Source: Candidatus Gottesmanbacteria bacterium (GTDB lineage: Bacteria; Patescibacteriota; Microgenomatia; 2-02-FULL-39-11). Taken from it: 64,000 bases of DNA. The notes beneath the pieces were generated by a model, which saw nothing but the letters and a program-made list of their open reading frames with translations, was not told where the DNA came from and did no database searches. The first letter of the stretch is position 1, and every line of letters starts with the position of its first letter. The stretch lies in NCBI GenBank assembly GCA_016195685.1, contig JACPZE010000044.1, positions 633 to 64,632 on the forward strand, in the 5' to 3' direction. Below, piece by piece: positions 11,336 to 43,005 of the stretch. The position numbers and the translations under genes are program-made.

Positions 11336-12574
11336 TCAATCAATAAGACTTGCGACTTTTTGTCCAAGTTCAATTGCGTAGTTGGTGCCTCTGTCCCATG
11401 GGTATACCATGTCCATATTCGCTAGGTAAACGTTTGGGATGGGTGTAATAAAGTCTGGTTTTATCTTTGAGTAGTTTGTGGGGAAAACTGGTTGGGCGAA
11501 AGGACCCATAAATAATTGAGAATTGAGAATTAAGAATTGAGAATTAAGTCGGGGATTGATTTTTTGAAGATAGGGAAGATATAGTTTTAATAACTCATCT
11601 TTGGTCATTTTAAGGTAGGGATGACCTTCTGGGAGATAATTTCCTACCCAAGTAAGGTGTTTTCCGCCATAATGTTTTGCATCCACCAAATTAGTTTGTT
11701 GGATAACTGCAATAAAAGGGAAAGTCCTGTCATTTATATTGAGCCAATATTCCTTTTCAAGTATTTTCTCTTTTGTCACGAGCAGTAGATTTAAAGCGTG
11801 CAAATGTGGAATATTCGTAAGTCTTTCTTTATAATCTTTTGGAAGTTGTGGGTACATTTTTATGAATATTGGGGAGGGTGTAGTGATAATGATCTTGTCA
11901 TAGTCTGTCGTTTTTTTGGTATCAAAAGGAGTAGAAAGTAATATCTTACCCCCGTCTTTTTTAAATTGCTTTTCCATTGCGTCTATCAGAGTTTGGTATC
12001 CGCCTTCCAGGTATCCTAATACTAGAGTGCGTTTTTTTATCCTAGCCCAAAACCAAGCCATGTTTACTACTTTTGCAAACTTTCCGAATTTGCCGAATAG
12101 GAGTGGTTTCCAGACAATCTCATATACTTTTTCACCAAAATATTTTCTCAGCCACTCATGGGCCAGATGTTTTTCTAAATTCTGACCAGAATTCATCGAT
12201 AAAAGTTTCAGAAACAAAGTGATTAGCCCAAGTCTTAGTCGATCTGTAAACGGAAGGGGAGAGAAAAAAAGGATTTGCAGTGGAGAATTAAAAGGGTAGC
12301 TTGTTTCCTGATAATAGATAGAAGTAAGAGTTTTTGGGAAAAGTAACTTTTCGGAAAGTCCCAGTTTTTTAATCAAATTTAAAGCAAAGTAATCATTGGA
12401 AAACCAATGGTGGTAGTGTTTTTCCACATACCAATCTGTACCCGGTAACTTTACCGCCGAAGCTAAGCCGCCTAACTCGCCAGTTGCTTCAAAAAGAGTC
12501 ACTTTATGATTTTGGGAAAGAGAAAGGCCAGCAGAAAGTCCGGTAAATCCTCCTCCCACAATTGTGATTTTCAT
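11336..12574 (-). CDS. FAD/NAD(P)-binding oxidoreductase (amine oxidase / phytoene desaturase-like)
   Basis: MKITIVGGGFTGLSAGL is a Rossmann dinucleotide-binding N-terminus. The track start at 12598 is a GTG inside the upstream repeat element, so the ATG at 12574 is preferred. It contains an in-frame heptamer repeat encoding LNSQFLILNSQL. Confidence 0.7.
   Translation of the reverse strand: MKITIVGGGFTGLSAGLSLSQNHKVTLFEATGELGGLASAVKLPGTDWYVEKHYHHWFSNDYFALNLIKKLGLSEKLLFPKTLTSIYYQETSYPFNSPLQILFFSPLPFTDRLRLGLITLFLKLLSMNSGQNLEKHLAHEWLRKYFGEKVYEIVWKPLLFGKFGKFAKVVNMAWFWARIKKRTLVLGYLEGGYQTLIDAMEKQFKKDGGKILLSTPFDTKKTTDYDKIIITTPSPIFIKMYPQLPKDYKERLTNIPHLHALNLLLVTKEKILEKEYWLNINDRTFPFIAVIQQTNLVDAKHYGGKHLTWVGNYLPEGHPYLKMTKDELLKLYLPYLQKINPRLNSQFLILNSQLFMGPFAQPVFPTNYSKIKPDFITPIPNVYLANMDMVYPWDRGTNYAIELGQKVASLID
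11511..11548. repeat. In-ORF tandem heptamer repeat (aattgag/aattaag)
   Basis: ataattgagaattgagaattaagaattgagaattaagtc, read directly. Confidence 0.6.
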
Positions 12575-12582
12575 ATTTTGAT

Positions 12583-12660
12583 TTACGGGTCCTGCCACTT
12601 AGTATCCCAACGCTACGATACATCTCCGGTTGGGACCCCTCTCTCGTGTCACCCGTTGTA
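12583..12660 (-). repeat. Palindromic 80-95-nt element (RPE-like), copy A, in the 5' UTR immediately upstream of the oxidoreductase start
   Basis: tttACGGGTcctgcc...tatcccaac...gttggga...gtcACCCGTtg has an outer stem ACGGGT/ACCCGT and an inner stem tcccaac/gttggga. It is homologous to copies at 25788, 36281 and 30418. Confidence 0.7.
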
Positions 12661-13233: not shown

Positions 13234-13400
13234 CCCTTCGGATAAGGAGAATGCTTAAGAGATTTTTTCCTCTACAACCTCCGAAGTGGGTATCCCGAAT
13301 TTTTCGGGAGATGAGGTTAAAGTATCCACGCACCCGTGGGTGCGGGATCTACCTCCCCATTGTTGCTTCGGGGAAAAATCTTAAGTAGTCTTCCTTTTTT
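13234..13400 (+). ncRNA. Candidate structured small RNA upstream of rho (unknown family)
   Basis: Putative promoter TTGACA(13198)-17nt-CATACT. Closing stem cttaagagattttt/aaaaatcttaag. Internal hairpins tcccgaa-ttttt-cggga and gaggttaaagtATCCaCGCACCCgtgGGGTGCGGGATctacctc. A T-run follows at 13393-13400. No family assignment was possible. Confidence 0.25.
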
Positions 13401-21296: not shown

Positions 21297-22607
21297 ATGG
21301 ATCTTTTGAAGCACATCATTACAACTTTCGTACTCCTATTACTCCTGCGACCTCCAGTTGTGTTTGCCCAGTCATCGTCACTTCTTACCCTTATCAACAG
21401 TGGTAAATCACTCATGTTCATTGGCGCCCACGCCGACGACGCAAACATTGCAGCGCCACTTCTCGTCCGCGGCTGTGTGGCTAAAAAATCAAAGTGTACC
21501 ATTGTGTCGATTGACCGGGCAAAATCGCCAGACGGAACCCAAGTTGATACTGAGTTTCGCACCTATACGTATCTCCTCAATACGAACGGCGTTGGCTTGG
21601 GATATCCATCTGGTACGCAGGGGGCGGGATTTGATGGTAATCCAGAGATTGTTATTGCAAACTGGAAGGCCATAGGTGACGTTGAAGGTGATATTTTAGC
21701 ACTTATTAATCAAGAAAAACCTGATGTCGTTATCACGCAGGAACCGACTCACGGGGTCTATGGGCACCCAGATCATCGCGCCATTGGCAGGGTTGTCACC
21801 AATGTCTTTCAAAAGAACAGTATTAATGCTTACCTCTACTATCAAATCGTCCGTTACTCATCGATTTTAGGTGGTAATCTTGACCCATTGCCTATCACCG
21901 ATACCATTGACGAACGTGATCGACTACCCGAGCTCAATAATGAAACGCCGTGGAATACTGCCTTAGGCGCACTGAGAACGATCCGTTTCGACCCAGGCTT
22001 TTTCGATTTAATTGCCTCTATCCCATCAGACGAGCAAATAAGTTGGAATCGGCTCGTGCAAACACCACAACAACCAGAAACCAGTCCAACACCAACAAGC
22101 GCCCCGACAGCTACGTCCATTCTTCTGCCGGCAACCACCCCGACGAGCATTCCAACTCCAGGCGCAGGTATCAGCCTAACCCCCACACCTGCCTATTTTC
22201 CTGACGATATCAATCATGATGGAAAAGTCGATATCTTCGACTATAATCTCCTAGTCACCGACTTTGGCAAGACAGGTTCCCCAGGTTTTTCAAAAGCAGA
22301 TTTAAACAATGACGGTAAAGTGGATATGTCAGATTTTAATATATTTATGGCTAGCGTTAAAAATCAACTATCAGTTTCTCCTACACTCATCTTAGCTCCT
22401 ACGCCAACCTATATTCCGACGATAATTCCTTCTCACACGGTATCCTTAACATCATGTGCATATAAACCCAATGGTGCAATTTGCATTGTAAATAACCAAG
22501 CAGGAGTCTGCAGCCATCACCAGTGTATTCCTCCTAATCATCCCCAACCGACTTCACCACCTGTAGACTGTGATTCACCAAACTCACCTAAATATTGTAA
22601 TTATTAA
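21297..22607 (+). CDS. Secreted LmbE/PIG-L family (CE14) deacetylase with a C-terminal dockerin and a Cys-rich tail
   Basis: Signal peptide. GAHADDANIA and HGVYGHPDHRAIG are LmbE-like motifs. P/T-rich linkers. DDINHDGKVDIFDYNLLVTDFGK and DLNNDGKVDMSDFNIFM are dockerin repeats. The gene is clearly GC-richer than its flanks. Confidence 0.7.
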   Translation: MDLLKHIITTFVLLLLLRPPVVFAQSSSLLTLINSGKSLMFIGAHADDANIAAPLLVRGCVAKKSKCTIVSIDRAKSPDGTQVDTEFRTYTYLLNTNGVGLGYPSGTQGAGFDGNPEIVIANWKAIGDVEGDILALINQEKPDVVITQEPTHGVYGHPDHRAIGRVVTNVFQKNSINAYLYYQIVRYSSILGGNLDPLPITDTIDERDRLPELNNETPWNTALGALRTIRFDPGFFDLIASIPSDEQISWNRLVQTPQQPETSPTPTSAPTATSILLPATTPTSIPTPGAGISLTPTPAYFPDDINHDGKVDIFDYNLLVTDFGKTGSPGFSKADLNNDGKVDMSDFNIFMASVKNQLSVSPTLILAPTPTYIPTIIPSHTVSLTSCAYKPNGAICIVNNQAGVCSHHQCIPPNHPQPTSPPVDCDSPNSPKYCNY

Positions 22608-22616
22608 TGAATTAAT

Positions 22617-23282
22617 ATGTTGAAATTAAATCTTACAAAAAAATCATACACTACAGTGCTAATCTTACTTTTTCTTCTGGTGGGATTAGCCTCTACGGTG
22701 TATCTATCCATGTCATATCTGGATATCAGAAAGAAAGCATCATATTCCGGAGCAACACTTGAACTTATTCCAGCAAGTATCATTAAAAACACAGGGGATA
22801 CATTCACAGTGGGAGTAGCCGTAAACACAGGAGATGAGACTGTCTCTGGAGCAGATGTCCATATAATTTATGAGGCTGATAAACTTGAAGTTCAAAGTAT
22901 TACCCCCGGTAACTTTCTGCCTAATATCTTTTCAGCCGGAAACTTTGGAGGAGGTAATGCTTCAATTGCATTAGTCAGCCAACCCGATAAACCACAAAAA
23001 GGATCTGGTATATTAGCCTCTATCAATTTCAAAGTCTTATCTAGTACACCTACAGTCATAAATTTCTCCTCAAATACTAAGATAGCTGCAATAGGAAAGA
23101 CCACTAATGTACTTACCAGTACCCAGGCAGCTGTGATAAATACTCCTTTGGCCACCATCAGTTCTTCGTCTTTTGCTTCTCCTAGCAGCATAGTAACACC
23201 TTCAATTGTTTCACCAACCCTTGCTATTACTCCTACCCTTAAAGTTCCTAGCCCTACGTCTATCACACCAGGAGACGGATAA
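22617..23282 (+). CDS. Membrane-anchored cohesin-like domain protein with an S/T/P-rich C-terminus
   Basis: N-terminal TM anchor. ATLELIPASIIKNTGDTFTVGVAVNTGDETVSGADVHIIYEADKLEVQSITPGNF resembles the cohesin beta-sandwich pattern. Confidence 0.45.
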   Translation: MLKLNLTKKSYTTVLILLFLLVGLASTVYLSMSYLDIRKKASYSGATLELIPASIIKNTGDTFTVGVAVNTGDETVSGADVHIIYEADKLEVQSITPGNFLPNIFSAGNFGGGNASIALVSQPDKPQKGSGILASINFKVLSSTPTVINFSSNTKIAAIGKTTNVLTSTQAAVINTPLATISSSSFASPSSIVTPSIVSPTLAITPTLKVPSPTSITPGDG

Positions 23283-23514: not shown

Positions 23515-23523
23515 CATTATTTT

Positions 23524-23558
23524 TTCTCACACAAGTAATTTCCCATAACTGATATATT
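23524..23558 (-). pseudogene. Duplicated remnant of the carbamoyltransferase 3' end (encodes ...ISVMGNYLCEKK*)
   Basis: 31/34 nt identical to 25475..25508, which encodes the genuine C-terminus ILVMGNYVCEK* of the carbamoyltransferase. The two copies flank the 615-aa gene as direct repeats. Confidence 0.55.
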
Positions 23559-23620: not shown

Positions 23621-25468
23621 ATGAAGTCTTTTCCCAAAATAAGTACAGTAGGAATTTTTCTAATACTTTTAATTTCGACGATTCTTCTTATTTCAGGATT
23701 TGCAATAGGGTATAAAACTTCACGAACAGATATATTCTCAAGAGCAGAATCTGGCCTAGCTCCGACTCCGCCTGCTTCACAATACGGAAGTATATCAGGT
23801 ACAATCACTATAGATAAAAATGTCTATGACAGTCTGGATAAATCGAGATCACTGGTAGTTTCTTCCTGTGATGTTGTACCTAAACCAACTATTGATCCCC
23901 AGGATCAGTTTCAGAAAGAAAATACTGTTGATATAAAAGATAAATATCTGGATTGTCCTAGAAATAATTGGTTTTTAGTATCCTTGGTTAAACCGGCAAA
24001 GTTTGAATATAATAAATATATTTTTCGGTATAACTTAGATAAAGTACCAATCGGAACCAGGGGAATCACTCTTCTCTCCTATTATTTTACTTCCAGAGAT
24101 GAAATTGTAGGAATTCTTTTTCCAGATAAAACAACGATAGAATCGCAAAATTGTGAGCTATTTGAAACTGACTATAAACAAGATTGTACATTAAGTATTG
24201 ATCAGGGAAGTGAGGTTAAACTGGATTATAAAATTTCTAAATCTGCCAGTAATGAAGTAAATAATGAATTATATCTTTATTCTTTGATTGGGAAAGATAA
24301 TAAAGTAGCATTAAACAAATGGTTGGAAAAAGCAGATAAGGAGACGTATAACCAGGCATTATCACTTATTACTTCTTCAGTGATAAATGTGAAGATTGAA
24401 AAAAATGAAGATTATAAACCTGTCTATTTCATCATAAAAGAGGCTGTATATGATTATCTTTTATCAAATCCAGGAAAAAACGTAATATATAAGTCAACCC
24501 GGAAAGATGAAAATTATTATAATGCGATTGCCACAAGCGGTATGTACAATATTCTACAACGCAGTTGGATGCCGGAAACAGTTGCGGGTCATATATTTGT
24601 AGCGGAACTTTTACCTACGTATTTTAAAAACTTCGGATCAATGGAAAATTACATACTTAAATATTCTGCACATATATATCCTACTTATTATCCGGGTTAT
24701 ATCCTTCAGGGAAGCGGGTTATATACTTATCTAAAAGATAAAATCATGCAAAGATTTGGTATAGATGATAAACGTTTTGCAGATATAACTCTCAGCATCA
24801 TCTATAACCGTTATAATCAAAAGGCAGAGGATGTAGAGATTATAGATGTAATTGAAGATGAAGCAAAAAACTGGGTAGAAGACAGTAAATCTTTTATAGT
24901 TGAAGAATATGATAAAAGTAATGAGCCAATCAGCACTTCGACAATACTGAGGTATTATCTGGAAAAAAACAACGGTAATCTTTCAGAATCATTGTGGGAT
25001 GTGGCAATCCTTTACAAGATTCTTGTGCGCTTCGATCATTTTGATAATACTCCATTATTTATTGTTAAACCTGATACTATTGAAACTAAATTTTCCGTAG
25101 AAAAAGCAAGTAAAGTCGCAGGTTTTACAGCAAAATATATAAAAGATGAGTTTACTAAAGTAAATAATTTTAATTCACTCAAGCAAAATTTAGATACAAA
25201 TGCCTCAGGAAATGAATCGGAAATTTATTATGACCCTAATAATCCGGAAATATCATTAGTGAATCAAGTAGGTAACGCCTATCGAAAAATGAACACGATT
25301 TCTTTACTAGTGTCGTACCCGCCAAATTTCTTGAAATTTCTTATGGTTGTGGAGAGTCAGTATAAAGGAGATGTTCATGGAATTGTAAAAAAAGAAGTTG
25401 ATTATGATGCAGCTCTATCCTTGGATGAAGTAGATAGTTATCTACAGTCATTTCTAAATAGTCCTTAA
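23621..25468 (+). CDS. Large secreted/membrane-anchored hypothetical protein (615 aa); no recognised domain
   Basis: N-terminal TM/signal (ISTVGIFLILLISTILLISGFAIG). Putative promoter TTGACA at 23588. Flanked by about 35-40-bp direct repeats. Confidence 0.6.
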   Translation: MKSFPKISTVGIFLILLISTILLISGFAIGYKTSRTDIFSRAESGLAPTPPASQYGSISGTITIDKNVYDSLDKSRSLVVSSCDVVPKPTIDPQDQFQKENTVDIKDKYLDCPRNNWFLVSLVKPAKFEYNKYIFRYNLDKVPIGTRGITLLSYYFTSRDEIVGILFPDKTTIESQNCELFETDYKQDCTLSIDQGSEVKLDYKISKSASNEVNNELYLYSLIGKDNKVALNKWLEKADKETYNQALSLITSSVINVKIEKNEDYKPVYFIIKEAVYDYLLSNPGKNVIYKSTRKDENYYNAIATSGMYNILQRSWMPETVAGHIFVAELLPTYFKNFGSMENYILKYSAHIYPTYYPGYILQGSGLYTYLKDKIMQRFGIDDKRFADITLSIIYNRYNQKAEDVEIIDVIEDEAKNWVEDSKSFIVEEYDKSNEPISTSTILRYYLEKNNGNLSESLWDVAILYKILVRFDHFDNTPLFIVKPDTIETKFSVEKASKVAGFTAKYIKDEFTKVNNFNSLKQNLDTNASGNESEIYYDPNNPEISLVNQVGNAYRKMNTISLLVSYPPNFLKFLMVVESQYKGDVHGIVKKEVDYDAALSLDEVDSYLQSFLNSP

Positions 25469-25470
25469 TA

Positions 25471-27279
25471 TTATTTCTCACACACGTAATTTCCCATCAC
25501 TAATATATCTATTCCGGATCTTTCCAAAGTTGAATAAGCGTCGGCAGGGGAGGCGACAATTGGTTCTCCACGCAGATTAAATGAGGTATTTAATACAAGT
25601 GGTACGCCTGTTTTTTTGTAAAAAGATTTTATCAATTGGTAGTAAAGAGGATTTTCCTTTTCATAAACTAGTTGAGGTCGAGCCGTATTATCTGCATGAT
25701 TTATGGCTGGTACTTTCTTTTGCCATTCTTTCTTGACTGGTACCACATACAACATGTAGCGAAGAGGATAGTGATTTTCTAATTTTAATTTACGGGTCCT
25801 GCCGCTTAGGTATCCCAAACTACGATACATCTTCGTTTGGGATCCCTCCTTCGCGTCACCCGTGGTTAAAATAGATGTATTCATAGCTGATAAATCAAAT
25901 ATCTTATCAGCATATTCTGCAAGTACAGAAGGGGCAAAAGGGCGGAAAGCTTCCCGGAATTTCACTTTTCTATTTATAATATCTTTCATTTTCAGGTTTC
26001 GGGCGTCTGCCAGGATACTTCTTGCTCCCAGCGCTCTTGGTCCCCATTCAAATCTTCCTTGCATCCAACCGATGACTCGGCCTTTTGATATTTTATCCGC
26101 GATAAAATCAACGATCTTTTTGTCATTTAATTTTTTAAATTTTGCTTTTTTCTCCTTCAAAAACTTCTCAATTTCCGGATTATCATATTGTTTTCCCAGA
26201 TAAGCGTGGGTCATCATTTTTCGATTGCCTTTATTTAAGACATGATGATATGCATATAAAGCCGCACCCATTGCTCCTCCAGAATCACCCGCTGCCGGTT
26301 GTACAAAAATATTTTTAAAGCCAGATTCTTTTAAGATCCGGTAATTAGCTACAGAGTTTAATGCTACACCACCTGCTAGGCACAGATTATCTGATTTAGT
26401 TTTGTTTCTTACATATTTGGCCATACCCAGAATCAATTCTTCTGTTACCAGCTGTACACTCGAAGCGATATCGGCTGGCCGTTTTTCTACCAGATGAGAT
26501 TGGTTCGGATCGATTGGACTTCCCAAGAGTTTTACCAATTTTTCAGAAAATGATTTTTTATCAGAGTACTGAAAAGAAAAATAGGAAAAGTCCAAAGAGA
26601 AACTGCCATCCGCAAGTTGCCGTACTGTTTTCCAGATTTTATCTGCATAGATAGGTTTGCCGTATGGAGCTAGACCCATGAGTTTCCATTCTCCTTCGTT
26701 TACCTCAAACCCCAAAAATGCAGTAAAAGCAGAATAAAAAAGTCCAAGAGATTGAGGAAAACGTATTTCGGAATTTAATCTGAGCTTGCTTCCCTCGCCA
26801 ACCCCAAATGATGAGGTGGTCCATTCGCCGACACCATCCAAAGTGAGAATCGCTGATTTTTTAAAAAGGGATGGATAAAAACAGCTGGCCGCATGGGATA
26901 AATGATGATCGCAAAAAAGTATTTTGGAAAGATCAACTTTTACATAAGATGAAATTTCCTGTTTTATCCAAAGTTTTTGTGTCAGCCAGACCCGAATACC
27001 CTCCCTAAAACTTGCATATGACAGGGGATAAGTTGATATTGCACTGATAAGCATGCGGTGAAACTTCCTGAAAGGTTTTTCATAAAATACTACATAATCT
27101 AAATCAGACTTGCTGACATGAGCAATCTCCAGGCAAAAATCAATCGCATTTTTGGGAAAAGACGAATCGTGTTTTTTACGGCTGAACCGTTCCTCTTCTG
27201 CTGCAGCTAAAACTTCTCCGTCTTTTAAAAGTACGGCAGCTGCGTCATGATAATAACAGGAAATTCCTAAGATATTCAT
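25471..27279 (-). CDS. Carbamoyltransferase (NodU/CmcH family)
   Basis: MNILGISCYYHDAAAVLLKDGEVLAAAEEERFSRKKHD and C-terminal PAINHADNTARPQLV...VLNTSFNLRGEPIV are family hallmarks. The start is set to the internal Met overlapping the upstream gene's stop. It carries a roughly 30-aa in-frame insertion from the palindromic element. Confidence 0.85.
   Translation of the reverse strand: MNILGISCYYHDAAAVLLKDGEVLAAAEEERFSRKKHDSSFPKNAIDFCLEIAHVSKSDLDYVVFYEKPFRKFHRMLISAISTYPLSYASFREGIRVWLTQKLWIKQEISSYVKVDLSKILFCDHHLSHAASCFYPSLFKKSAILTLDGVGEWTTSSFGVGEGSKLRLNSEIRFPQSLGLFYSAFTAFLGFEVNEGEWKLMGLAPYGKPIYADKIWKTVRQLADGSFSLDFSYFSFQYSDKKSFSEKLVKLLGSPIDPNQSHLVEKRPADIASSVQLVTEELILGMAKYVRNKTKSDNLCLAGGVALNSVANYRILKESGFKNIFVQPAAGDSGGAMGAALYAYHHVLNKGNRKMMTHAYLGKQYDNPEIEKFLKEKKAKFKKLNDKKIVDFIADKISKGRVIGWMQGRFEWGPRALGARSILADARNLKMKDIINRKVKFREAFRPFAPSVLAEYADKIFDLSAMNTSILTTGDAKEGSQTKMYRSLGYLSGRTRKLKLENHYPLRYMLYVVPVKKEWQKKVPAINHADNTARPQLVYEKENPLYYQLIKSFYKKTGVPLVLNTSFNLRGEPIVASPADAYSTLERSGIDILVMGNYVCEK
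25788..25870 (-). repeat. Palindromic RPE-like element, copy B, inserted in-frame inside the carbamoyltransferase
   Basis: tttACGGGTcctgccgcttaggtatcccaaactacgatacatcttcgtttgggatccctccttcgcgtcACCCGTgg. Translated in the gene frame it gives LTTGDAKEGSQTKMYRSLGYLSGRTRKLKLE with no stop. Confidence 0.75.
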
Positions 27280-27509
27280 CAGAATTGTTCTTTTAGTTCT
27301 TCTAAGGTATCGTTGTGTGTATTTTTTAAACTCCAAGTGGATACCGGGAGGGTTTTAAACCCGAGTTTGTCTTTCGTAAAAGTAAAAATAATTCCGAAAG
27401 GCAAAAGAATTGTAAAATAGAAGATAGACAGTATTACTTGCGCTTGGAATACTGCAATGCGGTGGGCGATTTTTTTCCATTTTTGCCAAATAGACTTTAT
27501 TATCTGCAT
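27279..27509 (-). CDS. Small membrane protein, SxtJ-like, in the carbamoyltransferase operon
   Basis: 76-aa ORF with 2 TM helices, immediately upstream of and overlapping the carbamoyltransferase start. Confidence 0.45.
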   Translation of the reverse strand: MQIIKSIWQKWKKIAHRIAVFQAQVILSIFYFTILLPFGIIFTFTKDKLGFKTLPVSTWSLKNTHNDTLEELKEQF

Positions 27510-29434: not shown

Positions 29435-30412
29435 TTAATTCGATAACTTCAGCATCCTTTCAATTGGTATTCTAGCCCTTTCTGCTATTTCTTTGGGAAC
29501 TTTTACTTCATAGACTAGATTCTTCAGAGTATTTAGTAACTTGGGTAGGGTGATCATTTTCATAAATTCACAAACCATATCATCACGAAGGGGTATAAAA
29601 TTTTTCTGCGGGTTATCTTTCTTCATGCGGTATAAAATTCCAGTTTCTGTCGCGACGACATATTCTTTTGCAGGAGATTGTTGTACATGCTTCATCATTC
29701 CGCCGGTTGAAAGGATTTTGGTTTTTGATGTGGGTATATCTCCGCTTGCTACATAGTGCATGCAGGTGGAAACGCAACCGCATTCAGGATGGATAAGAAA
29801 TTCAGCTTGGGGATGTTCATCCATTTTTTGGATAATATCAGCTGGTTTTACCCTAGCATGGACGTGGCATTCACCCGGATAAATAATCATATTTTTGCGG
29901 CCTGTAGTTTTGGCCACATAATCACCCAAAAACATATCAGGTAGGAAAAGAATAGGTTTTTCGGGAGGTAAAGAATTGACTATTTTTACAGCATTAGCCG
30001 ATGTGACGCAGTAATCTGATTCCGCTTTTACTTCTGCTGTGGTATTCACATAAGAAACAACTAAAGCTTCAGGGTACATTTTCTTCCATTTCCGTAATTC
30101 TGTGCCGTCAATACTGGCAGCCAGAGAACAGCCGGCATTTAAATCTGGGATAAGGACAGTTTTATCAGGTGAGAAGATAGAGGCTGATTCTGCCATGAAA
30201 TGGACACCGCAAAAAACAATAAGTGATTTTTTTGTTTCTGCGGCAAGTCTGGATAGTTCCAGGGAATCACCCACAAAATCCGCGACATCTTGGATTTCCG
30301 GGAGCTCGTAATTATGAGCAATTATTAATGCTCCCCTTTTTTCTTTCCAAAGGAGGACGTCTTTCATCAATTTTTGTTTTTCTTCTTCAAGCTCATTGTT
30401 TTGCTTCGTCAT
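29435..30412 (-). CDS. nadA: Quinolinate synthase NadA
   Basis: IIAHNYELPEIQDVADFVGDSLELS, VFCGVHFMAESA and Cys ligands. Confidence 0.9.
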   Translation of the reverse strand: MTKQNNELEEEKQKLMKDVLLWKEKRGALIIAHNYELPEIQDVADFVGDSLELSRLAAETKKSLIVFCGVHFMAESASIFSPDKTVLIPDLNAGCSLAASIDGTELRKWKKMYPEALVVSYVNTTAEVKAESDYCVTSANAVKIVNSLPPEKPILFLPDMFLGDYVAKTTGRKNMIIYPGECHVHARVKPADIIQKMDEHPQAEFLIHPECGCVSTCMHYVASGDIPTSKTKILSTGGMMKHVQQSPAKEYVVATETGILYRMKKDNPQKNFIPLRDDMVCEFMKMITLPKLLNTLKNLVYEVKVPKEIAERARIPIERMLKLSN

Positions 30413-30417
30413 TTTAA

Positions 30418-30432
30418 TTTACGGGTCCTGCC
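30418..30432 (-). repeat. Partial copy D of the palindromic element (tttacgggtcctgcc), abutting the nadA start codon
   Basis: The same 15-mer terminus as copies A-C; the minus strand reads GGCAGGACCCGTAAATTAAAATG. Confidence 0.5.
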
Positions 30433-30597
30433 GTATTCTGTATCAGCATATAAATTTTTCAGACTCTGCAGCTCGTGCTCGGTATAGCCCTAACCGTCTG
30501 TCCATATGCCTTAATATTCTCGCACTCAATTGCAGAGATCTTCAAAATTCATATTTCTTACTGAATTAGTATCGCAATGCCCGTGGTTAAATTTAAA

Positions 30598-30640: not shown

Positions 30641-30684
30641 TCAGTTATTATACTTACTTAGTGTAAAAAATACAATAATTCATT

Positions 30685-32208
30685 ATGAAAACTGATTTTA
30701 TTGTGATTGGATCAGGTTTAGCTGGACTTACAAGTAGTTTAATTCTTTCTAACTACGGAAAAGTTTTGTTGGTTACCAAAGGAAAACTATCCGATGGGGC
30801 AACTAATTGGGCGCAGGGAGGTGTTGCTTGTGTGGTGGAAAAGAATGATACTTGGCAGAAGCATTATAAAGATACTCTCGTTTCCGGAGCATACCATAAT
30901 GACAGAAAGTCAGTTGAATTTTTGGTGAAGAATGCTCCATCAGCTATTGATTGGCTTGAAAAGATGGGGGTCCCTTTTGAGAAGGAAGAAGGCCATTTTA
31001 AAGTAGGGAGGGAGGGAGGGCACTCCTATAACCGGATTATTCACGCCACAGATTTTACCGGCAAAGAAATAGAATTTACCCTTCTTAAGAAGATAAGGGA
31101 GAATAAAAATATAATTATTTGGGAAGATTCTTTTGCCCAAAAATTATTAGTGGAGAGGAAGAAATGTTTTGGCGTTCAAATAATAAAAAAGGACAAAATT
31201 ATTCTTTGTTATTCAAAGTTTACGATACTAGCCACTGGAGGGTTAGGTCAAATTTATCAGTGGACTACAAATCCGCTAGTTTCTACAGGGGATGGTTATG
31301 CTCTCGCTTATCGGGGAGGAGTAAAATTAAAAGATATGGAATTTATACAATTCCATCCGACTGCTCTAAAACCTGCCTCCTCGGCAGGCAGGTATGGTAA
31401 TTCGCCGCTATTTCTTCTCACTGAAGCATTGCGAGGGGAAGACGCTTATTTAGTAAATTCCAAAGGAGAAAGATTTATGGGAGATTATGATAAGAGAGAA
31501 GAATTAGCTCCTCGAGATATAGTTTCCCGAGCTATTTTTGAAGAGCAACAAAAAGGATACGAGATCTATCTGGATATCAGGCATAAAAGAAAACAATTCT
31601 TAAAGAAAAGATTTCCCAATATTTATGAAGAACTGAAAAAAAGAGGGTTTGATCTAGTAAAACACTTAATCCCAGTCACTCCAGCAGCCCATTTCAGTTG
31701 CGGGGGAGTAGAAACTGATTTGTCCGGCAGGACTAATATAAAAAACCTCTTCGCATTTGGAGAAGTAGCTTGTACTGGTGTGCATGGAGCCAACAGGTTA
31801 GCCTCGAATTCTTTACTTGAAGCAGTAGTTTTTCCGCTCCGTCTGCTGAGGTCAGCGAGACTTTTTTGCGCACCTCCCAGTTCGTCCACTCCTTTGCCTC
31901 CGGCAAACTCGTGGTACTCAGGAAACAGTGGGCGTGCTCAAAAAGCTAGCTTCCCTGCAGACTTTTATCTAAATATAAGAAAAAATCTCCAAAAACTTAT
32001 GTGGGAGAAGGTGGGGATAGTGAGAAGAAAAAGGGATTTAGAATATGCGATAGGTAAGTTAAGCAGTTGGGAAAAAGATCTGGAAGATTTGGATTATCCC
32101 AGTAGAGAATTATTGGAATTAAAAAACATGATATTGGTGGGAAAACTCATTACCCAATCAGCACTCAAAAGAAGAAAAAGTCTAGGGACGCATTTTATTA
32201 CCGTATGA
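30685..32208 (+). CDS. nadB: L-aspartate oxidase NadB
   Basis: DFIVIGSGLAGLTSSL FAD site, RxxHxxGG-like HPTAL and the succinate dehydrogenase/fumarate reductase flavoprotein fold. Confidence 0.9.
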   Translation: MKTDFIVIGSGLAGLTSSLILSNYGKVLLVTKGKLSDGATNWAQGGVACVVEKNDTWQKHYKDTLVSGAYHNDRKSVEFLVKNAPSAIDWLEKMGVPFEKEEGHFKVGREGGHSYNRIIHATDFTGKEIEFTLLKKIRENKNIIIWEDSFAQKLLVERKKCFGVQIIKKDKIILCYSKFTILATGGLGQIYQWTTNPLVSTGDGYALAYRGGVKLKDMEFIQFHPTALKPASSAGRYGNSPLFLLTEALRGEDAYLVNSKGERFMGDYDKREELAPRDIVSRAIFEEQQKGYEIYLDIRHKRKQFLKKRFPNIYEELKKRGFDLVKHLIPVTPAAHFSCGGVETDLSGRTNIKNLFAFGEVACTGVHGANRLASNSLLEAVVFPLRLLRSARLFCAPPSSSTPLPPANSWYSGNSGRAQKASFPADFYLNIRKNLQKLMWEKVGIVRRKRDLEYAIGKLSSWEKDLEDLDYPSRELLELKNMILVGKLITQSALKRRKSLGTHFITV

Positions 32209-33942: not shown

Positions 33943-34015
33943 AAATACAGAGCCTATTGACAATAAAATTACTTCAGAGTAATATTTGCTTCTCTGCCCC
34001 GATGGGGCATTTTTT

Positions 34016-35215
34016 ATGCTTAAATATCTTTTTATTATCTCTTTCTTTCTCGGATTGAGCCTCTTTTTATCTCCTGTAAAAGTCTCTGCAGAAGAAGTTT
34101 CCTGTATGGGAAAGCCAGCTACAATAGTTAACGATCTGGAAAATGTGGTTATCAATGGAACTGAGGGGGATGACGTAATTGTCAGTACCGCACAAAATGT
34201 TGATATTTATGGTAATGGTGGAAATGACACTATATGTGCCGCAGGAAAAGCAAGAATTTGGGGAGGAGATGGTGATGATAAAATCGATGGAGGGGGAGCA
34301 AGTGAAATCCATGGTGGTCCCGGTGACGATGTAATATTTGCTCACGCGGGCGCTGGAAATACAGGAACTATTAACAGTACAGAGGCATATAACGGAACAC
34401 CCGGAGTAAACTGTTTAGCCGGAACAGGAGTTGAAGACAGTAGCACGATTTATGGAGATGAAGGTAATGATATTTTAGTCGGATGTGGTGGGCATGATAT
34501 TTTAGATGGCGGTCCAGGTGTAGATGCAATATTTGGATATGGAGGTACTGATCTTCTTTACGGTGAGGATGGGAATGATTTGTTAGTAGGTAATGATGGT
34601 GATGATACGATTTACGGTGGTCCTGGTTTAAATACAATTTTGGGTGGAGGTGGAAACGATACAATTTATGGAGGAGATGATGGGAATTATATATATGGAG
34701 GAGAGGGGAATGATTCTCTTTTTGGGGGAAATGGCAATGATTATATATTTGGGGAAGCCGGTAATGATGAAATCTATGGTTATGGAGGGGATGATTATAT
34801 AATTGGAGGAGAGGGAGCAAATGTAATTGATGGTGGAACAGGATACAATAGATGTATGCAAGGTGATCCTATGTATAATTGCGTTGATCTTTTACATCCG
34901 CCAACCCCAACTCCTGCTCCTACAGATGAGCCTACACTTACGCCTACTATCACTATTACTCCTACAGTGACTCTTACTCCTGTACCTTTGGAGCCTACGC
35001 TTACCAGTACTCCTACTCCTGTAGTTCCTACACCCACAACGCGATTGCCAAGTCTAGTTCTACCAACAATAAATTGGACATTGCCTCAATTATGGTTATT
35101 ATCACCCACACCAACTATTGGAGGAGATAATGGTCCTACACCCACAGTACAACCTACACCTACTCAACCTAGTAGTTCAAATAGGTATAACAGGCCACCT
35201 TACCGTATTAACTAA
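34016..35215 (+). CDS. Secreted hemolysin-type calcium-binding (RTX) repeat protein with a P/T-rich C-terminus
   Basis: Signal peptide MLKYLFIISFFLGLSLFLSPVKVSA. Many GGxGxDxxx nonapeptide repeats (GNGGNDTI, GGDGDDKI, GGPGDDVI...). Confidence 0.7.
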   Translation: MLKYLFIISFFLGLSLFLSPVKVSAEEVSCMGKPATIVNDLENVVINGTEGDDVIVSTAQNVDIYGNGGNDTICAAGKARIWGGDGDDKIDGGGASEIHGGPGDDVIFAHAGAGNTGTINSTEAYNGTPGVNCLAGTGVEDSSTIYGDEGNDILVGCGGHDILDGGPGVDAIFGYGGTDLLYGEDGNDLLVGNDGDDTIYGGPGLNTILGGGGNDTIYGGDDGNYIYGGEGNDSLFGGNGNDYIFGEAGNDEIYGYGGDDYIIGGEGANVIDGGTGYNRCMQGDPMYNCVDLLHPPTPTPAPTDEPTLTPTITITPTVTLTPVPLEPTLTSTPTPVVPTPTTRLPSLVLPTINWTLPQLWLLSPTPTIGGDNGPTPTVQPTPTQPSSSNRYNRPPYRIN

Positions 35216-37583
35216 TTTTCTTTCGAAAAATAATAAAAATTATTCCCAAGATTATTTCTCCGGCTAAAAGAAAAACTTTCAACTTATTCGGTTCATAGGT
35301 AAATTCCACTGTGTGAGTTCCGGGTGTGACTGGAGTAGCTAGATAAAATGGGAACACTGCGAATTTACTTGCCTCGTTTCCATCCAACTTTACCTTCCAA
35401 TCAGGATGGTAACTCATCTTAAACATGGCATAACAATATTTACAGTTATTCGGTACTTCAATTGTGGCGGAAAATGTTTGTTTTGATTGATTATCTTTGA
35501 TTATTTTTCCGGAAGGAGTAGATTCTGGAAACATGAGAGGAAAATCCGCGAATATATTCTTGGATTGCCCGTTTTCTATATAATTTGTTTCATCAGTCAT
35601 GGTTAAAACTCTTTGCATGTTTTGTGGAATAGTAGGATTATTCTCTACAGAGATAAGAGGGTGCATTTTCCACCTTCGGGTGTAGGAATTCCACCAATAA
35701 TGGACAAGGTTTAGATAATTCGTCTTATCGCTTTTTACCATCATTGGAGAAGTTACCACATCAAACCAACCGGTAGTAGGTGCCTGGAAAAGATTAAACG
35801 GGCCGTATTTATCAACCAATTTTAGACTAGATGCGAAACCTTCATTTTTCGCAGCTACAGCATATTTTATATTCAGCAGATCAAAGTCCAAAGCCTCTCT
35901 TTCATCAAAATCCTGCTCGTTTTCAGAAAGGGGCGACCAGGTTTCTGGTAGGAATTGGCTGATGTCATATCCTATACCTCCAAATAAAAGATAAAGTTCT
36001 GTTGATCCAAGTCTGAAATTTTTGCCCCAATTTCCAGGCCTTCCGGCATAGATTCTTCCGCGTGGAAGGGAATCGATCTTTGCGAGTAGATTTTGGAAAT
36101 TATGTTCATCATAGCGGTAGGCATCATTCGCCTGGTAAATCCATTTGTTATTTAAAGTGGCATAATCAGCAGTTTGTTTGGTAGTTATGTAGATCAAAAA
36201 GGATGCGAATATAAATAATAAGATATAAAAGACTATATTGAGATTTGGATTCACAGCCTCAATACCGAATTTCTCATCTGCGCGGGTTCTGCCGCGAAAG
36301 TATCCCAACTTCGTCCCGCTAAGCGGGACTACGTTTGGGAGTCCCTCCTTCGCGCCACCCACAGTTAATAATTTTGATATTTTATATTTGATTTTTGATA
36401 TAAACGAAAATAAATATTCCAACCCAGCTGGAATTAAGAATAGTGCTGCAATATGTACCCCCACTATAAATCTATGCTGGTGAAAGTCTTTCATACCGGG
36501 GATAAGATCGATCAGTCCTCCCCAAGTTGTTCTGCCAAAATATAAAATCATCCAGAAAGCAAAAAGAAGAGAAAAAGGAAAATATTTCCTGCGGATAGTC
36601 AGGACAAAAAAACCTGCCAAAACAAGAATAGTTACAATAGGGAATCTCTGCCAGTCAAAAATCTCCCCTGCAAACAGTTGTCTTGCCACTTCATACCATC
36701 CGTATGAATTGAATTTCCAGATAGGATCCCAGAAAGAGATGATGTGATATTGATTATTTAAAAGAATGGGAATAATCCAATATGAAAGAATTAAGAAACA
36801 TGAAGCAAGAATGAAGAATAATTTCTTACCCCTATTTATTATTTGAGATAAATTTAAATCTAGAAATATAAAAGGTATGGTAGAGAGAAATCCTATTATT
36901 CCGATACCTAGGTGTCCCATGACTGTGAGGGTGAGAAATATTATCGATTTTAAGGTGTATTTATTCCACAACTTGTAATCCTTACTACTTGATTCGTCAC
37001 CGATTAATGCCCTATAAGTAAAAGCAATTCCGAGTGGTAGGAAAATAAGTGCATAAAGCTGTGAAGTGAGTCCGTAGCCTCGCCAAAGGTAACTTGGCGG
37101 GTCAATACCGTAAAGTCCGTCTGTTGAGTAGTGAGCAGAGAAGAACGCTCCTAAAGCAGCCAAGATGGGTGAGAAACCAACTATTCTGAGAGCTAAAAAA
37201 ACAGATAGAGGAAAAAGACTTAGCAGTAAGTATTTTGTCCAATTATAGTAATTGTAAATTGAAAATTGAGAATTGAAAATTGAAGAGATGGGTTTAATAA
37301 AAAGATGATATGAGGAGACAATTGTTATTTGAGGTATATGACTGTAATAAAATGGAAGGGGATAACCTTCAGCCCAATTGGTTACATTATGGTCGATAAG
37401 ATTAGGTAAGCAAGATAAAGATAGTGGGCAACCGTAATTTTCCCAAACCCAATTGGTTCTGCCTACCAAAGAAAATTGAAAAATATTATCATTTGGATCA
37501 GCCAAGATTTGAGTCTCCGGATAGTTGAGCCAGAGATTAAAGATTATTGTTGCTGCTAATATTAAATAGGCGATGTATTTCAT
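35208..37583 (-). CDS. Large polytopic membrane protein, GT-C-like (YfhO/PMT-like), carrying an RPE-like insertion and heptamer-repeat insertions
   Basis: 791 aa with many TM helices and a C-terminal soluble domain. The element inserted in-frame gives LTVGGAKEGLPNVVPLSGTKLGYFRGRTRADEKF. Confidence 0.6.
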   Translation of the reverse strand: MKYIAYLILAATIIFNLWLNYPETQILADPNDNIFQFSLVGRTNWVWENYGCPLSLSCLPNLIDHNVTNWAEGYPLPFYYSHIPQITIVSSYHLFIKPISSIFNSQFSIYNYYNWTKYLLLSLFPLSVFLALRIVGFSPILAALGAFFSAHYSTDGLYGIDPPSYLWRGYGLTSQLYALIFLPLGIAFTYRALIGDESSSKDYKLWNKYTLKSIIFLTLTVMGHLGIGIIGFLSTIPFIFLDLNLSQIINRGKKLFFILASCFLILSYWIIPILLNNQYHIISFWDPIWKFNSYGWYEVARQLFAGEIFDWQRFPIVTILVLAGFFVLTIRRKYFPFSLLFAFWMILYFGRTTWGGLIDLIPGMKDFHQHRFIVGVHIAALFLIPAGLEYLFSFISKIKYKISKLLTVGGAKEGLPNVVPLSGTKLGYFRGRTRADEKFGIEAVNPNLNIVFYILLFIFASFLIYITTKQTADYATLNNKWIYQANDAYRYDEHNFQNLLAKIDSLPRGRIYAGRPGNWGKNFRLGSTELYLLFGGIGYDISQFLPETWSPLSENEQDFDEREALDFDLLNIKYAVAAKNEGFASSLKLVDKYGPFNLFQAPTTGWFDVVTSPMMVKSDKTNYLNLVHYWWNSYTRRWKMHPLISVENNPTIPQNMQRVLTMTDETNYIENGQSKNIFADFPLMFPESTPSGKIIKDNQSKQTFSATIEVPNNCKYCYAMFKMSYHPDWKVKLDGNEASKFAVFPFYLATPVTPGTHTVEFTYEPNKLKVFLLAGEIILGIIFIIFRKKIS
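36281..36368 (-). repeat. Palindromic RPE-like element, copy C, inserted in-frame in the GT-C-like gene
   Basis: cGCGGGTtctgccgcgaaagtatcccaacttcgtcccgctaagcgggactacgtttgggagtccctccttcgcgccACCCAC. It is in the same frame as copy B and the inner hairpin is 9 nt longer. Confidence 0.7.
37250..37286. repeat. In-ORF heptamer repeat (aattgta/aattgaa/aattgag) encoding SIFNSQFSIYNY
   Basis: aattgtaaattgaaaattgagaattgaaaattgaag. Confidence 0.6.
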
Positions 37584-41275: not shown

Positions 41276-43005
41276 ATCGTCACCGCTTCTTTATCGTAAA
41301 CTGGTTTCAAAAGAGTAGGGTAAAGATAATTTTTGGCAAAAGGTTTTTCTTCCGGGCCTTGGAATACTAGAGCAATTTTATTACTCACAAGGAAGTTTTT
41401 AGCTTCTTCTGTGGTCATTTTATCTTCAAATAATCTTTGTGTATCATTTTCCTTTTCCTGCTCTTTATATGTATAGCCAAAATGGCCGATAAAACTGATC
41501 GTATTGGTATATGCTGGCAAATAATTTCCGGTATAAAAGGTAGAGAGTGTAACTGATTTGGTTGGATAATTTAGGTTTATGAAATTAAAAGCATCAAAAA
41601 TCCTATTATCCAGATAAACATTGCCATAAAATGGCCAGTATTCCCTGATCTGATCTTTGATACTCCAGTAAAGGGTGGGGTAAGTAAATATAATAAATAA
41701 CGTAATACTAGTAAGAGCAACTAAATTTGAAATTTGAAATTTGAAATTTGAAATGAAATCTAAATTTTTAATATTTAATTTTTGAAAATTCAATGAAAAT
41801 TTAAAATTGAAAATTGAAAATTGTTTAAGAAACTTTTCAATAGTCTTAATTCCCAGTATTGCTAGTATTGCCAATGGTAAATATGGTACCCCCTGTATTA
41901 AGCGGACATTTGAAAGATTTAATTTTGGAGCGATAGGTATAAAAAGAAGTGGAATTACTAACCAGCAAAGGATAAATATGTTTTCAAACTTTTTGGATTT
42001 TATGGTCTGATAAATTTCCATGATAGAAAATGGTAGAAGAATACCCAGCGCTCCAATTAGCTCTCTATCGAGGGGAAACTGCAGGTTTTTCTCCCAGTCG
42101 ATATACTGGCTCCAGGGAAAACCATTCTTGGTTTGAGAAACCATAAACAATAAAAATATTAACCCAATAACCCAATAACCCAATAACCCAATCAGTTTTG
42201 ACTTTTGAATTTTAACTTTTGAATTTTGGCCATTGGAAATATTTAAAAAGTAGTAAATCAACATGCTAGAAGGAATTATTAATAAGATGATCAGTAAGCT
42301 CGGTGTATGTACAAATGCCATAATTGCGCTAAGTAGAATGAGCCAGAATAGATATTTTCGTTGGGGTTTATTGATATATTTGAAAATGACAATTATTGAA
42401 GTGACAAGTAGAAATCCCCCCAACATGTGATGCGGTAGAAATGCGGCCCTTCTTACAGGATCGATGCCATTCCACCAATGCATGTAAGGTACTGACCGAA
42501 GAGTTCCATAATCATTGATAGTATGCATAAATGGTGAAGCAAATAAAAAGAAAAAGTATGTAAGATTTGGATATGGAATTTTGAGATATAAAATCAGGTA
42601 GTAAGAAGTAATAAGTAGGATTAAACCAAGAATAATTCTAGTCAGGTGATAGGTATAAGGATACCAAAGACCCAATATTTTGCTTAATCTACCAAGCCAC
42701 AAAAAGTAAGAAAAAATTATAGATGGTTGATGTCCTTCAGAAGTGTAAGGATCGTAAGTCATCCAAGCGCCATTTGCCCCTTCATTCATAAGAGAGAGAT
42801 AGAAGTAATAGTCTTGGGTATTGTTATGAATTAACGTCAAGGTACGGCCGGGAGGAGTATGTCTGACTTGCATGATCATCGGAGTGAGGTTGAGGGCAAG
42901 AATAAATAAAGTGGCGAGAACAAAAAAAACAATTTTTGATTTGAGGATTTTTAATATCACTGAGAATTTATTGTAAATTGTAAATTGTAAATTGTAAATT
43001 ACCAA
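41257..43005 (-). CDS. Polytopic membrane protein (GT-C-like) with two in-frame heptamer-repeat insertions
   Basis: ORF; paralog of the preceding gene. The insertions encode IFNFKFSLNFQKLNIKNLDFISNFKFQISN and LIGLLGYWVIGLIF. Confidence 0.55.
   Translation of the reverse strand: MVIYNLQFTIYNKFSVILKILKSKIVFFVLATLFILALNLTPMIMQVRHTPPGRTLTLIHNNTQDYYFYLSLMNEGANGAWMTYDPYTSEGHQPSIIFSYFLWLGRLSKILGLWYPYTYHLTRIILGLILLITSYYLILYLKIPYPNLTYFFFLFASPFMHTINDYGTLRSVPYMHWWNGIDPVRRAAFLPHHMLGGFLLVTSIIVIFKYINKPQRKYLFWLILLSAIMAFVHTPSLLIILLIIPSSMLIYYFLNISNGQNSKVKIQKSKLIGLLGYWVIGLIFLLFMVSQTKNGFPWSQYIDWEKNLQFPLDRELIGALGILLPFSIMEIYQTIKSKKFENIFILCWLVIPLLFIPIAPKLNLSNVRLIQGVPYLPLAILAILGIKTIEKFLKQFSIFNFKFSLNFQKLNIKNLDFISNFKFQISNLVALTSITLFIIFTYPTLYWSIKDQIREYWPFYGNVYLDNRIFDAFNFINLNYPTKSVTLSTFYTGNYLPAYTNTISFIGHFGYTYKEQEKENDTQRLFEDKMTTEEAKNFLVSNKIALVFQGPEEKPFAKNYLYPTLLKPVYDKEAVTIYKLNL
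41723..41824. repeat. In-ORF tandem heptamer repeats (aatttga x4 ... aaattga x3)
   Basis: ctaaatttgaaatttgaaatttgaaatttgaaatgaaatc...aaattgaaaattgaaaattg. Confidence 0.65.
42160..42230. repeat. In-ORF tandem repeats (aacccaat x4, then ttttgaa/ttttaac units)
   Basis: aacccaataacccaataacccaataacccaatcagttttgacttttgaattttaacttttgaatttt. Confidence 0.6.
42970..43000. repeat. Intergenic tandem heptamer repeat (ttgtaaa x4)
   Basis: ttgtaaattgtaaattgtaaattgtaaatt. Confidence 0.6.

Follow-up and report, generated by a model that had tools for sequence, protein, structure and literature searches.

The window analysed here is a 64-kb stretch of a Candidatus Gottesmanbacteria contig, and the subject of this analysis is a short palindromic element that lies in frame within one of its genes. 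The host gene, on the minus strand (25471..27279), was identified by Pfam as encoding a NodU/CmcH-type carbamoyltransferase of 602 residues from the ATG at 27279; the listed open reading frame (ORF) reaches further, to a TTG at 27336. The protein matched Carbam_trans_N (1.6e-82) and Carbam_trans_C (7.3e-66), and it is 100% identical to one NCBI Candidatus Gottesmanbacteria protein. The Carbam_trans_C match is broken into two stretches by the element, which occupies 25783..25872 of the minus strand, about 90 nucleotides (nt) or 30 codons, and corresponds to residues 470–499 (ILTTGDAKEGSQTKMYRSLGYLSGRTRKLK).

An earlier note had described an in-frame palindrome of about 85 nt at this site. An imperfect palindrome is indeed present, but its hairpin measures 72 nt from core to core and the inserted unit about 90 nt. 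The latter size was obtained by comparing filled with empty sites, and the unit consists of the 72-nt hairpin and an A/T-rich outer stem (ATTTTAACC ... AAATTAAAA). The plus strand of 25792-25863 reads ACGGGTCCTGCCGCTTAGGTATCCCAAACTACGATACATCTTCGTTTGGGATCCCTCCTTCGCGTCACCCGT. On the minus strand, the 5′ core ACGGGTGAC (25855..25863) contains the 5′ arm of stem P1, an unpaired GA and the first base of stem P2, and the 3′ core GGCAGGACCCGT (25792..25803) contains the last base of P2, an unpaired GCAGG and the 3′ arm of P1. The variable interior between them (25804..25854, minus strand) comprises P2 (CGC/GCG), a purine bulge (GAAGGAGGGA), an inner stem and a loop. The two stems named in the note, the outer ACGGGT/ACCCGT (25792-25797 and 25858-25863) and the inner TCCCAAAC/GTTTGGGA (25813-25820 and 25835-25842, with a loop of 14 nt), were both found at the coordinates given for them. 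Folding upheld the proposed structure: the sense RNA (101 nt) reached −33.3 kcal/mol against a shuffle mean of −20.5 (z = −4.2), and none of 200 shuffles was equally stable. The element has a GC content of 57%, compared with about 36% for the window.

Read in the carbamoyltransferase frame, the element gives SILTTGDAKEGSQTKMYRSLGYLSGRTRKLKLEN with no stop, which agrees with the claim that it adds about 30 residues in frame. These residues are hydrophilic and fall in a loop of the C-terminal domain between conserved blocks. In contrast, the statement that only one of the six frames of the element is open did not hold. One of three sense frames is open, but on the antisense strand frame +1 has no stop at all and frame +2 has none within the element, and the argument built on a single open frame fails. 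Copies elsewhere in the family use two sense frames as well as antisense ones.

The segment was then compared with homologs, and it proved to be extra. In an alignment of 34 orthologs, the common length without the segment is 568–570 residues. The closest orthologs, P0002 and P0003 (73% identity), do not carry it, nor do most others, and at the DNA level the site in the P0003 gene is empty and uninterrupted. The solved carbamoyltransferases 9s2t, GdmN and TobZ align to residues 8–464 and 508–600, with 7 residues between the aligned blocks where the present protein has 43. An AlphaFold2 model (mean predicted local distance difference test score, pLDDT, 80.7) showed residues 469–496 as coil with pLDDT below 50 between confident flanks, and the inserted segment is therefore predicted to be a disordered surface loop that the enzyme tolerates. 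Two further orthologs, P0009 and P0010, carry diverged members of the family in this very loop, where strand and reading frame agree with the present copy but the interiors are unrelated; their arms are GCGGGTGGT...GACAGGACCCGC and GCGGGTGAC...GGGGACCCGC, respectively. These same-loop copies may represent one old insertion with losses, or a hot spot.

Several other observations concern the same gene and its orthologs. Gottesmanbacteria orthologs contain other, unrelated inserts rich in G, R, P and S in four loops (alignment columns 389–450, 470–500, 503–575 and 660–700). The motif DFSS(D/E)GD..KRSGSHDS was found in differing loops of differing orthologs, and the motif ILATPPKRGRPESGGDPG is repeated in P0006, P0010 and P0015; these inserts are probably more in-frame element families. 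At the 3′ end of the gene, a 40-nt direct repeat (23518-23557 and 25469-25508, 90% identical) copies the end of the carbamoyltransferase gene and flanks a 615-residue ORF (23621..25468) that has no Pfam match. The orthologous loci carry other genes in this place, and the arrangement looks like a 1.95-kb insertion beside the carbamoyltransferase gene.

Three more copies were found in the window, as the note had reported, and all four share one orientation, on the coding strand of minus-strand genes. Their 20-nt arms match with 0–3 mismatches, where 0.00 matches are expected by chance, and a stricter scan for both cores gave no match in 20 shuffled windows. The 5′ core is exact in two of the window copies; the 3′ core is exact in three and has two mismatches in the fourth. 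Two of the copies have degenerate cores and are overlooked by the strict two-core scanner. The second copy (12585-12656, minus strand) is intergenic, between an ORF with a Big_1 domain and an amine-oxidase-like gene, and its 3′ end lies 10 nt ahead of the ATG of the latter at 12574; its P2 carries the change CGC/GCG to CAC/GUG, an example of the compensatory nature of the differences among the copies. The third (30421-30584, minus strand) is a 164-nt variant with a long divergent interior, a degenerate 5′ core (ACGGGC) and a DNA fold z of −3.35, and it lies 8 nt ahead of the ATG of nadA (29435..30412; NadA by Pfam). The fourth (36282-36362, minus strand) lies in frame inside a gene for a membrane protein of 791 residues (35208..37583), where it reads LTVGGAKEGLPNVVPLSGTKLGYFRGRTRADE in the same reading frame as the carbamoyltransferase copy. 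This protein gave weak matches to DUF6541 and YfhO, both below the Pfam curated cut-offs.

Occupancy was further compared with a syntenic metagenome locus, L029, which aligns to 26.9–37.9 kb of the window at 67–78% nucleotide identity. The two differ at all four comparable sites, which speaks for mobility. The copy in the nadA leader and that in the membrane protein gene are found only in the window; L029 alone carries a copy upstream of the gene for quinolinate phosphoribosyltransferase (QRPTase, NadC-like) and another in frame inside that gene. The latter copy, L029b, shares 94% identity over 94 nt with the copy in the carbamoyltransferase gene in spite of the different host, and measured against the empty site in the window its unit is 90 nt. 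Upstream of nadA, the window (30646-30680, minus strand) and L029 (10320-10352) have a promoter-like sequence in common (TTGTATTTTTTACACTAAGTAAGTATAAT). The nadA ATG lies 11 nt past TATAAT in L029, whereas in the window the two are set apart by an insertion of about 230 nt that includes the element.

The family was traced beyond this genome by scanning metagenomes with the pattern ACGGGTGAC-N45-75-GGCAGGACCCGT, a core of 9 + 12 nt. Together with the earlier loci, the scans gave at least 128 instances with an exact core, on contigs of 35–71% GC; the exact 21-nt core is imposed by the search pattern, and "invariant" here means only "very often identical". All of these instances but one or two form hairpins. 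The core pattern had no match in 2.9 million viral contigs. A scan of a genome collection with the 3′-half pattern returned 11 stretches, the source genome of the window not among them, and revealed copies in another Gottesmanbacteria metagenome-assembled genome (MAG), in a Saccharimonadales MAG (two copies) and in three "Gammaproteobacteria" MAGs, where the taxon names rest on record titles and recognisable host proteins. Stretches L001, L002, L007, L008 and L011 have no upstream 5′ core or hairpin and are likely chance matches, and L084 is a chance match in a coding sequence reading ...GQDPYP. The 3′ core string was not found in the literature searched, the 9-nt 5′ core string occurred only in papers on unrelated topics, and a literature search on bacteria of the candidate phyla radiation (CPR) with palindromic, in-frame or MITE (miniature inverted-repeat transposable element) repeats found nothing relevant. 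The element family is large, spans unrelated bacteria, sits in many essential genes and is apparently undescribed.

A common architecture was evident in these copies. A variable outer stem leads into P1 (ACGGGU/ACCCGU), followed by an internal loop with GA opposite GCAGG and then by a variable P2; past P2 there is often a G-rich bulge on one strand (the 5′ side) and a variable distal hairpin. In a core-anchored alignment, the four flank positions adjacent to the core were paired in 57–83% of copies, compared with 35–41% when partners were shuffled, and seven P2 positions were paired in 64–98%. Moreover, when 96 trimmed copies were aligned without gaps, pairing reached 79% of cells versus 60% with shuffled and 31–40% with slid partners, and the covariation score was 0.429 versus 0.129, a value reached by none of 500 shuffles. 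Degenerate cores occur in the window copies at 36282 and 30421 and in P0009 and P0010, and where the core is degenerate the P1 changes are compensatory, for example GUGGGU/ACCCAC in L132. Copies on the same contig are nearly always co-oriented, as are all four in the window and both copies in each of L029, L033, L077 and L119; L093 is the exception.

Additional sequence features were seen around or within some copies. Half-copies, consisting of a second 5′ or 3′ core with a matching P2, lie 70–150 nt from a full copy in L030, L051, L122 and L129. Extra (A/G)GGACCCGT words follow the copies in L022, L034, L050, L068, L074 and L101, a local clustering like that in arrays of repetitive extragenic palindromic (REP) sequences. 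A second interior motif, C(S)GCAG followed by a small hairpin and CGAG(S′)AC, occurs on the sense strand only, for example in the metagenome copies L005, L021, L032, L038, L045, L051 and L063 and also in L133 (the P0009 gene), and is found repeatedly in otherwise unrelated subtypes; S and S′ are complementary in 10 of 10 strict matches. On the element-bearing contig L064 (67% GC), positions 125-381 hold two tandem c-di-GMP-II-GAG riboswitch aptamers (63 and 60 bits).

The positions of the copies relative to genes were evaluated on contigs below 55% GC. Among unique copies, 27 of 84, about a third in these gene-dense genomes, lie inside ORFs of at least 150 residues (13 sense and 14 antisense) and 57 are intergenic; ORFs were called at the loci by a simple longest-ORF rule, which is not reliable at high GC and which may have placed inside genes some "N-terminal" copies that lie ahead of the true start. 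All 27 intragenic copies are open in the host frame, in either orientation. The sense-frame peptides read TGDA...GRTR, AAGPV or RQDP, or RVT...AGPV in the other sense frame, and the antisense-frame peptides read TGPA...SPV, HPS or VTR; the frame in which the core contains a stop (xAC GGG TGA) is never used by intragenic copies. Ten hosts were confirmed with Pfam, namely TopA, LeuRS, an AMP-binding (Acs-like) enzyme, BipA, GatB, TsaD, a class-V aminotransferase, DnaX, a radical SAM protein and a Wzy_C (O-antigen-ligase-like) protein, and their domain matches are split or stretched exactly where the element sits. By eye, we take the high-GC hosts to include an actinobacterial-type Kgd/OdhA, with the element in a linker, and HpnC-like squalene synthase genes, with the element at two different positions.

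Intergenic copies tend to lie close to gene ends. About 31 are within 26 nt past the stop of an opposite-strand gene, about 14 within 29 nt past a same-strand stop, and about 14 within 30 nt ahead of a same-strand start. Overall, about 45 of 75 lie within 30 nt of a stop codon, a proportion that is partly trivial given the short spacers. In the 14 cases where the element stands between close co-oriented ORFs, the two were always different genes and never halves of a split one; the pairs include DapB/aminotransferase, CarA/CarB, PurF/PurM, PurB/PurA, CysE/CysS, HemN/HemE, Hom/Asd and RecF with its neighbour.

We consider it probable that the carbamoyltransferase gene contains a copy of a mobile, non-autonomous DNA palindrome, and that this palindrome is translated along with the gene and is neither an RNA element nor an intron. 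At paired positions, G·U makes up 1–7% and A·C mismatches 1–12%, and G·U counts are practically the same in sense (135) and antisense (134) folds. In addition, the two orientations with respect to host genes and operons are about equally frequent (50:50). The co-orientation of copies on one contig and the occurrence of tandem half-copies were counted on the side of DNA as well. Because G·U is no commoner than A·C and copies occur in both orientations, the pairing points to a palindrome maintained as DNA rather than as RNA. Under this proposal, copies would be made at the DNA level, and the fixed asymmetric core would probably be the recognition site of a trans-acting enzyme acting on the folded single strand, with an HUH/Y1-type transposase, as for REPs and IS200/IS605, as the candidate type. 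Insertions that break a frame or a fold would be purged by selection, and the surviving intragenic copies would be transcribed, translated and carried as a surface loop. A broader suggestion is that the hairpins form an undescribed mobile class that crosses phyla, in which the core (U-GA-C opposite G-GCAGG-A) serves as the handle for one conserved machinery working on the folded single strand, and which has colonised essential genes, such as those for TopA, LeuRS, GatB, TsaD and DnaX, in CPR bacteria and beyond; we put this forward tentatively, at somewhat less than even confidence.

Several results weigh against a mobile DNA palindrome. The sense RNA fold is more stable by 3.6 kcal/mol on average, and the unpaired segments are rich in G and A on one strand: in 38 of 118 copies the bulge of the sense strand contains GGAGG, whereas the antisense strand never does. 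No recurrent neighbour, transposase or REP-associated tyrosine transposase (RAYT) was found beside the copies in an all-against-all clustering of 1,951 flanking ORFs from 120 loci, and a Pfam scan of about 45 window ORFs turned up no transposase either. Likewise, no pair of cores encloses a gene in 942 kb of locus DNA, which yielded tandem half-copies only. Target-site duplication is inconsistent, with TA|..|TA at some copies and CG|..|CG or GG|..|CC at others; neither TA nor TTAA held up across the flanks and the filled and empty sites. MITEs and REPs are as a rule confined to one lineage, and it is uncommon for them to have the same core in very different genomes; a host-level function would also fit. 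The same-site copies of P0009 and P0010 retain core and hairpin despite fully diverged interiors, which hints at maintenance in place. Finally, that the segment is translated is something we infer from the sequence. We read the strand-specific features as a property of the strand used by the mobilising machinery, or as a secondary effect on expression, and we weighed the DNA-side evidence more heavily.

The strand-specific features are also the starting point of the strongest alternative, a cis-acting structured RNA such as an intercistronic or 5′-leader hairpin for processing, stability or translation start, whose internal loop would bind a conserved RNA-binding protein and whose intragenic copies would be by-products. 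Covarying stems on either side of an internal loop that is fixed and asymmetric would suit such an RNA. The sense fold is the better one in 100 of 119 copies, and the GGAGG of the sense bulge, absent from the antisense strand, resembles a Shine–Dalgarno sequence. Furthermore, five copies of the Gottesmanbacteria type lie 8–12 nt ahead of an ATG (those at 12585 and 30421 of the window, L029a, L077a and L091), the outer stem of the copy at 30421 pairs with the nadA start codon, and numerous copies stand in operon spacers or right past stop codons. However, the even split of orientations and the lack of any preference for G·U over A·C are not what this explanation predicts, the flanking genes have no function in common, and occupancy is polymorphic among close genomes. 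No Rfam 15 family was found for the element, with the whole window searched at gathering thresholds, the element at E values up to 10, and 20 metagenome loci and two further subtypes included. The best match, whalefall-1, scored 18.6 bits against a gathering score of 37 and left the core uncovered, and it was rejected. We regard a structured RNA as unlikely.

Spread without a dedicated enzyme was also considered. Here, template switching at hairpins, gene conversion and horizontal transfer would move the palindrome, and the core would be kept by descent from a master copy. Near-perfect Watson–Crick covariation with few G·T intermediates is what quasi-palindrome correction would give, the half-copies and clusters of L030, L051, L122 and L129 are compatible with such events, and the clustered flanking ORFs revealed no associated gene. 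In contrast, descent alone is unable to explain the same core at 35–71% GC amid replaced surroundings, and it leaves unexplained why the most conserved part is an asymmetric, non-palindromic loop. We consider this explanation improbable.

An intervening sequence missing from the protein, removed from the mRNA like an intron or skipped by the ribosome (translational bypassing), appears very improbable. The stable base of the hairpin would juxtapose both junctions, a core common to several phyla is what a universal processing signal would produce, and on inspection of the sequence the core arms start with GU and end with AG. Nevertheless, every one of the 27 low-GC intragenic copies is open in the host frame in either orientation, no split gene was seen among the 14 candidate pairs, antisense copies would give a different RNA, and intragenic copies are the minority (27 of 84) in gene-dense genomes, which is what one would expect if most insertions do harm. 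Least credible of all is a native, lineage-specific loop of the carbamoyltransferase family that is palindromic by accident: several Gottesmanbacteria orthologs do have extra residues in this loop, with related sequence in P0009 and P0010, but the segment is missing from the closest orthologs, from the family at large and from the solved structures, the same sequence is present in unrelated genes and spacers, and its 57% GC stands out from a background of about 36%.

Further candidates were set aside. An intein is excluded by size, about 30 codons being too small. An integron attC site does not fit, as the basal stem is ACGGGT/ACCCGT and not the R′′/R′ boxes RYYYAAC...GTTRRRY, and the copies lie in housekeeping genes and operon spacers, not at cassette ends. 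On inspection only, no convincing fit was seen for a kink-turn or an 11-nt tetraloop receptor, for a dif-like or primase CTG site, or for a similarity to 16S rRNA (ACGGGUGAG).

The earlier note had likened the element to the Rickettsia palindromic elements (RPEs), of which RPE-1 to RPE-8 were reportedly described by Ogata et al. (cited in PMC3733652). Both are dispersed hairpin repeats found in spacers and in frame in functional, including essential, genes, where they add tens of residues and are missing from orthologs; in being dispersed, in frame, tolerated and polymorphic, the likeness stands. In contrast, RPEs are limited to the Rickettsia lineage, whereas the present core is common to CPR bacteria, Saccharimonadales, "Gammaproteobacteria" MAGs and an actinobacterial-type host and is not genome-specific, the CGTC/GTAG tags and the REP/RPE architecture are missing, and copies are read in both orientations. 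Two of the types, RPE-4 and RPE-6, belong to the CGTC-tagged REPs, for which the peptides VIPAKAGI, SFPRKRES and DSRFRGND are listed in R. conorii (PMC3733652). Compared with them by the described architecture and these peptides, the present element has no CGTC tag and none of their peptides, its own reading TGDA...GRTR. The element thus works like an RPE, which does not imply membership in the RPEs themselves.

For GTAG- and CGTC-tagged REPs, Di Nocera et al. (2013, PMC3733652) describe intragenic copies that lie in frame in genes for DNA repair, replication and tRNA synthetases. REPs lie mostly just past stop codons, between co-directional or convergent genes, and their stems show frequent G-T pairing (PMC3733652). 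The present copies resemble the REP/REPIN-RAYT system in being short palindromes, often paired into larger hairpins, and in the same past-stop location; REPs are presumed to be mobilised in trans by a Y1 transposase encoded in a single copy. Unlike REPs, the element has no terminal GTAG/CGTC tag (GTAG occurs only in the loop of copies of the Gottesmanbacteria subtype) and no 8–9-bp stem with a 4–5-nt loop and CCA tail, and its termini vary. Its conserved part is an internal asymmetric loop midway in a 70–95-nt hairpin with freely varying stems, no RAYT was found near copies at the 120 loci, and G·U is rare in its stems.

Bacterial MITEs such as Correia/NEMIS, RUP, ERIC and Nezha are likewise small, non-coding, multi-copy inverted-repeat hairpins that are co-transcribed with neighbouring genes and sometimes lie in frame. 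However, a MITE is marked by terminal inverted repeats that are conserved, by a target duplication and by a recognisable parent insertion sequence, whereas the termini of the present element pair but vary around a fixed centre, and no consistent duplication or parent element was found for its copies in the 942 kb of locus DNA. The GC clusters, double-hairpin elements and "byp" elements of fungal mitochondria are GC-rich mobile hairpins that invade protein genes of AT-rich genomes and are either translated in frame, as are the GC clusters of yeast var1, or bypassed. Unlike the present element, they are organellar and lineage-specific and have no shared core; moreover, the open frames of the present copies do not need bypassing.

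The rest of the window contains further genes and repeats. Pfam annotation of about 45 ORFs identified type IV pilus components, Rho, a cluster for NAD biosynthesis (nadB, nadA, nadC and an NrtR-like regulator), enzymes of sugar modification, a protein with RTX repeats and one with a PIN domain. A GC-rich intergenic segment (13265-13400), between ORFs ending at 13129 and starting at 13548, folded as single-stranded DNA at −27.6 kcal/mol (z = −5.5) and matched no Rfam family at gathering thresholds. This segment may represent a further repeat family, or else an RNA that lacks annotation. A GC-rich imperfect palindrome (31825-31970, DNA fold z = −2.8) lies in nadB, the L-aspartate oxidase gene (ORF 30685..32208), between two Pfam domains, and may simply be a native linker; in the same region a 28-nt repeat occurs at 31363 and 31936. 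A/T-rich spacer repeats of the (ATTGAAA)n type were seen in both orientations (588-686, 1497-1591, 11515-11545, 37251-37281, 41719-41836 and 42938-43000). At 33986-35215 and 21297-23282, the window encodes an RTX calcium-binding nonapeptide-repeat protein, with an adjacent dockerin-containing PIG-L protein and a cohesin-domain protein, and the pairing of dockerin with cohesin is unusual in a CPR genome. The DNA repeats D3, D7, D9 and D15 correspond to the repeats in these proteins.

Selfish palindromes that sit in frame are textbook curiosities of Rickettsia and a few Proteobacteria. In the present family, this behaviour is tied to a single 21-nt core in genomes of 35–71% GC, CPR bacteria among them. 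CPR proteins are known for unexplained insertions, and the core supplies a searchable signature for annotating such insertions, which otherwise exaggerate the diversity of gene lengths and mislead alignment, structure prediction and phylogeny. The intragenic copies also constitute a natural catalogue of loops in essential enzymes that tolerate about 30 extra residues, and the family poses a well-defined problem, namely which enzyme recognises the core. If the core instead has a host function, it would be a widespread nucleic-acid motif absent from current RNA family libraries. If the hairpins do form a mobile class that crosses phyla, much of the unexplained length variation of CPR proteins would be traceable to a single element family.

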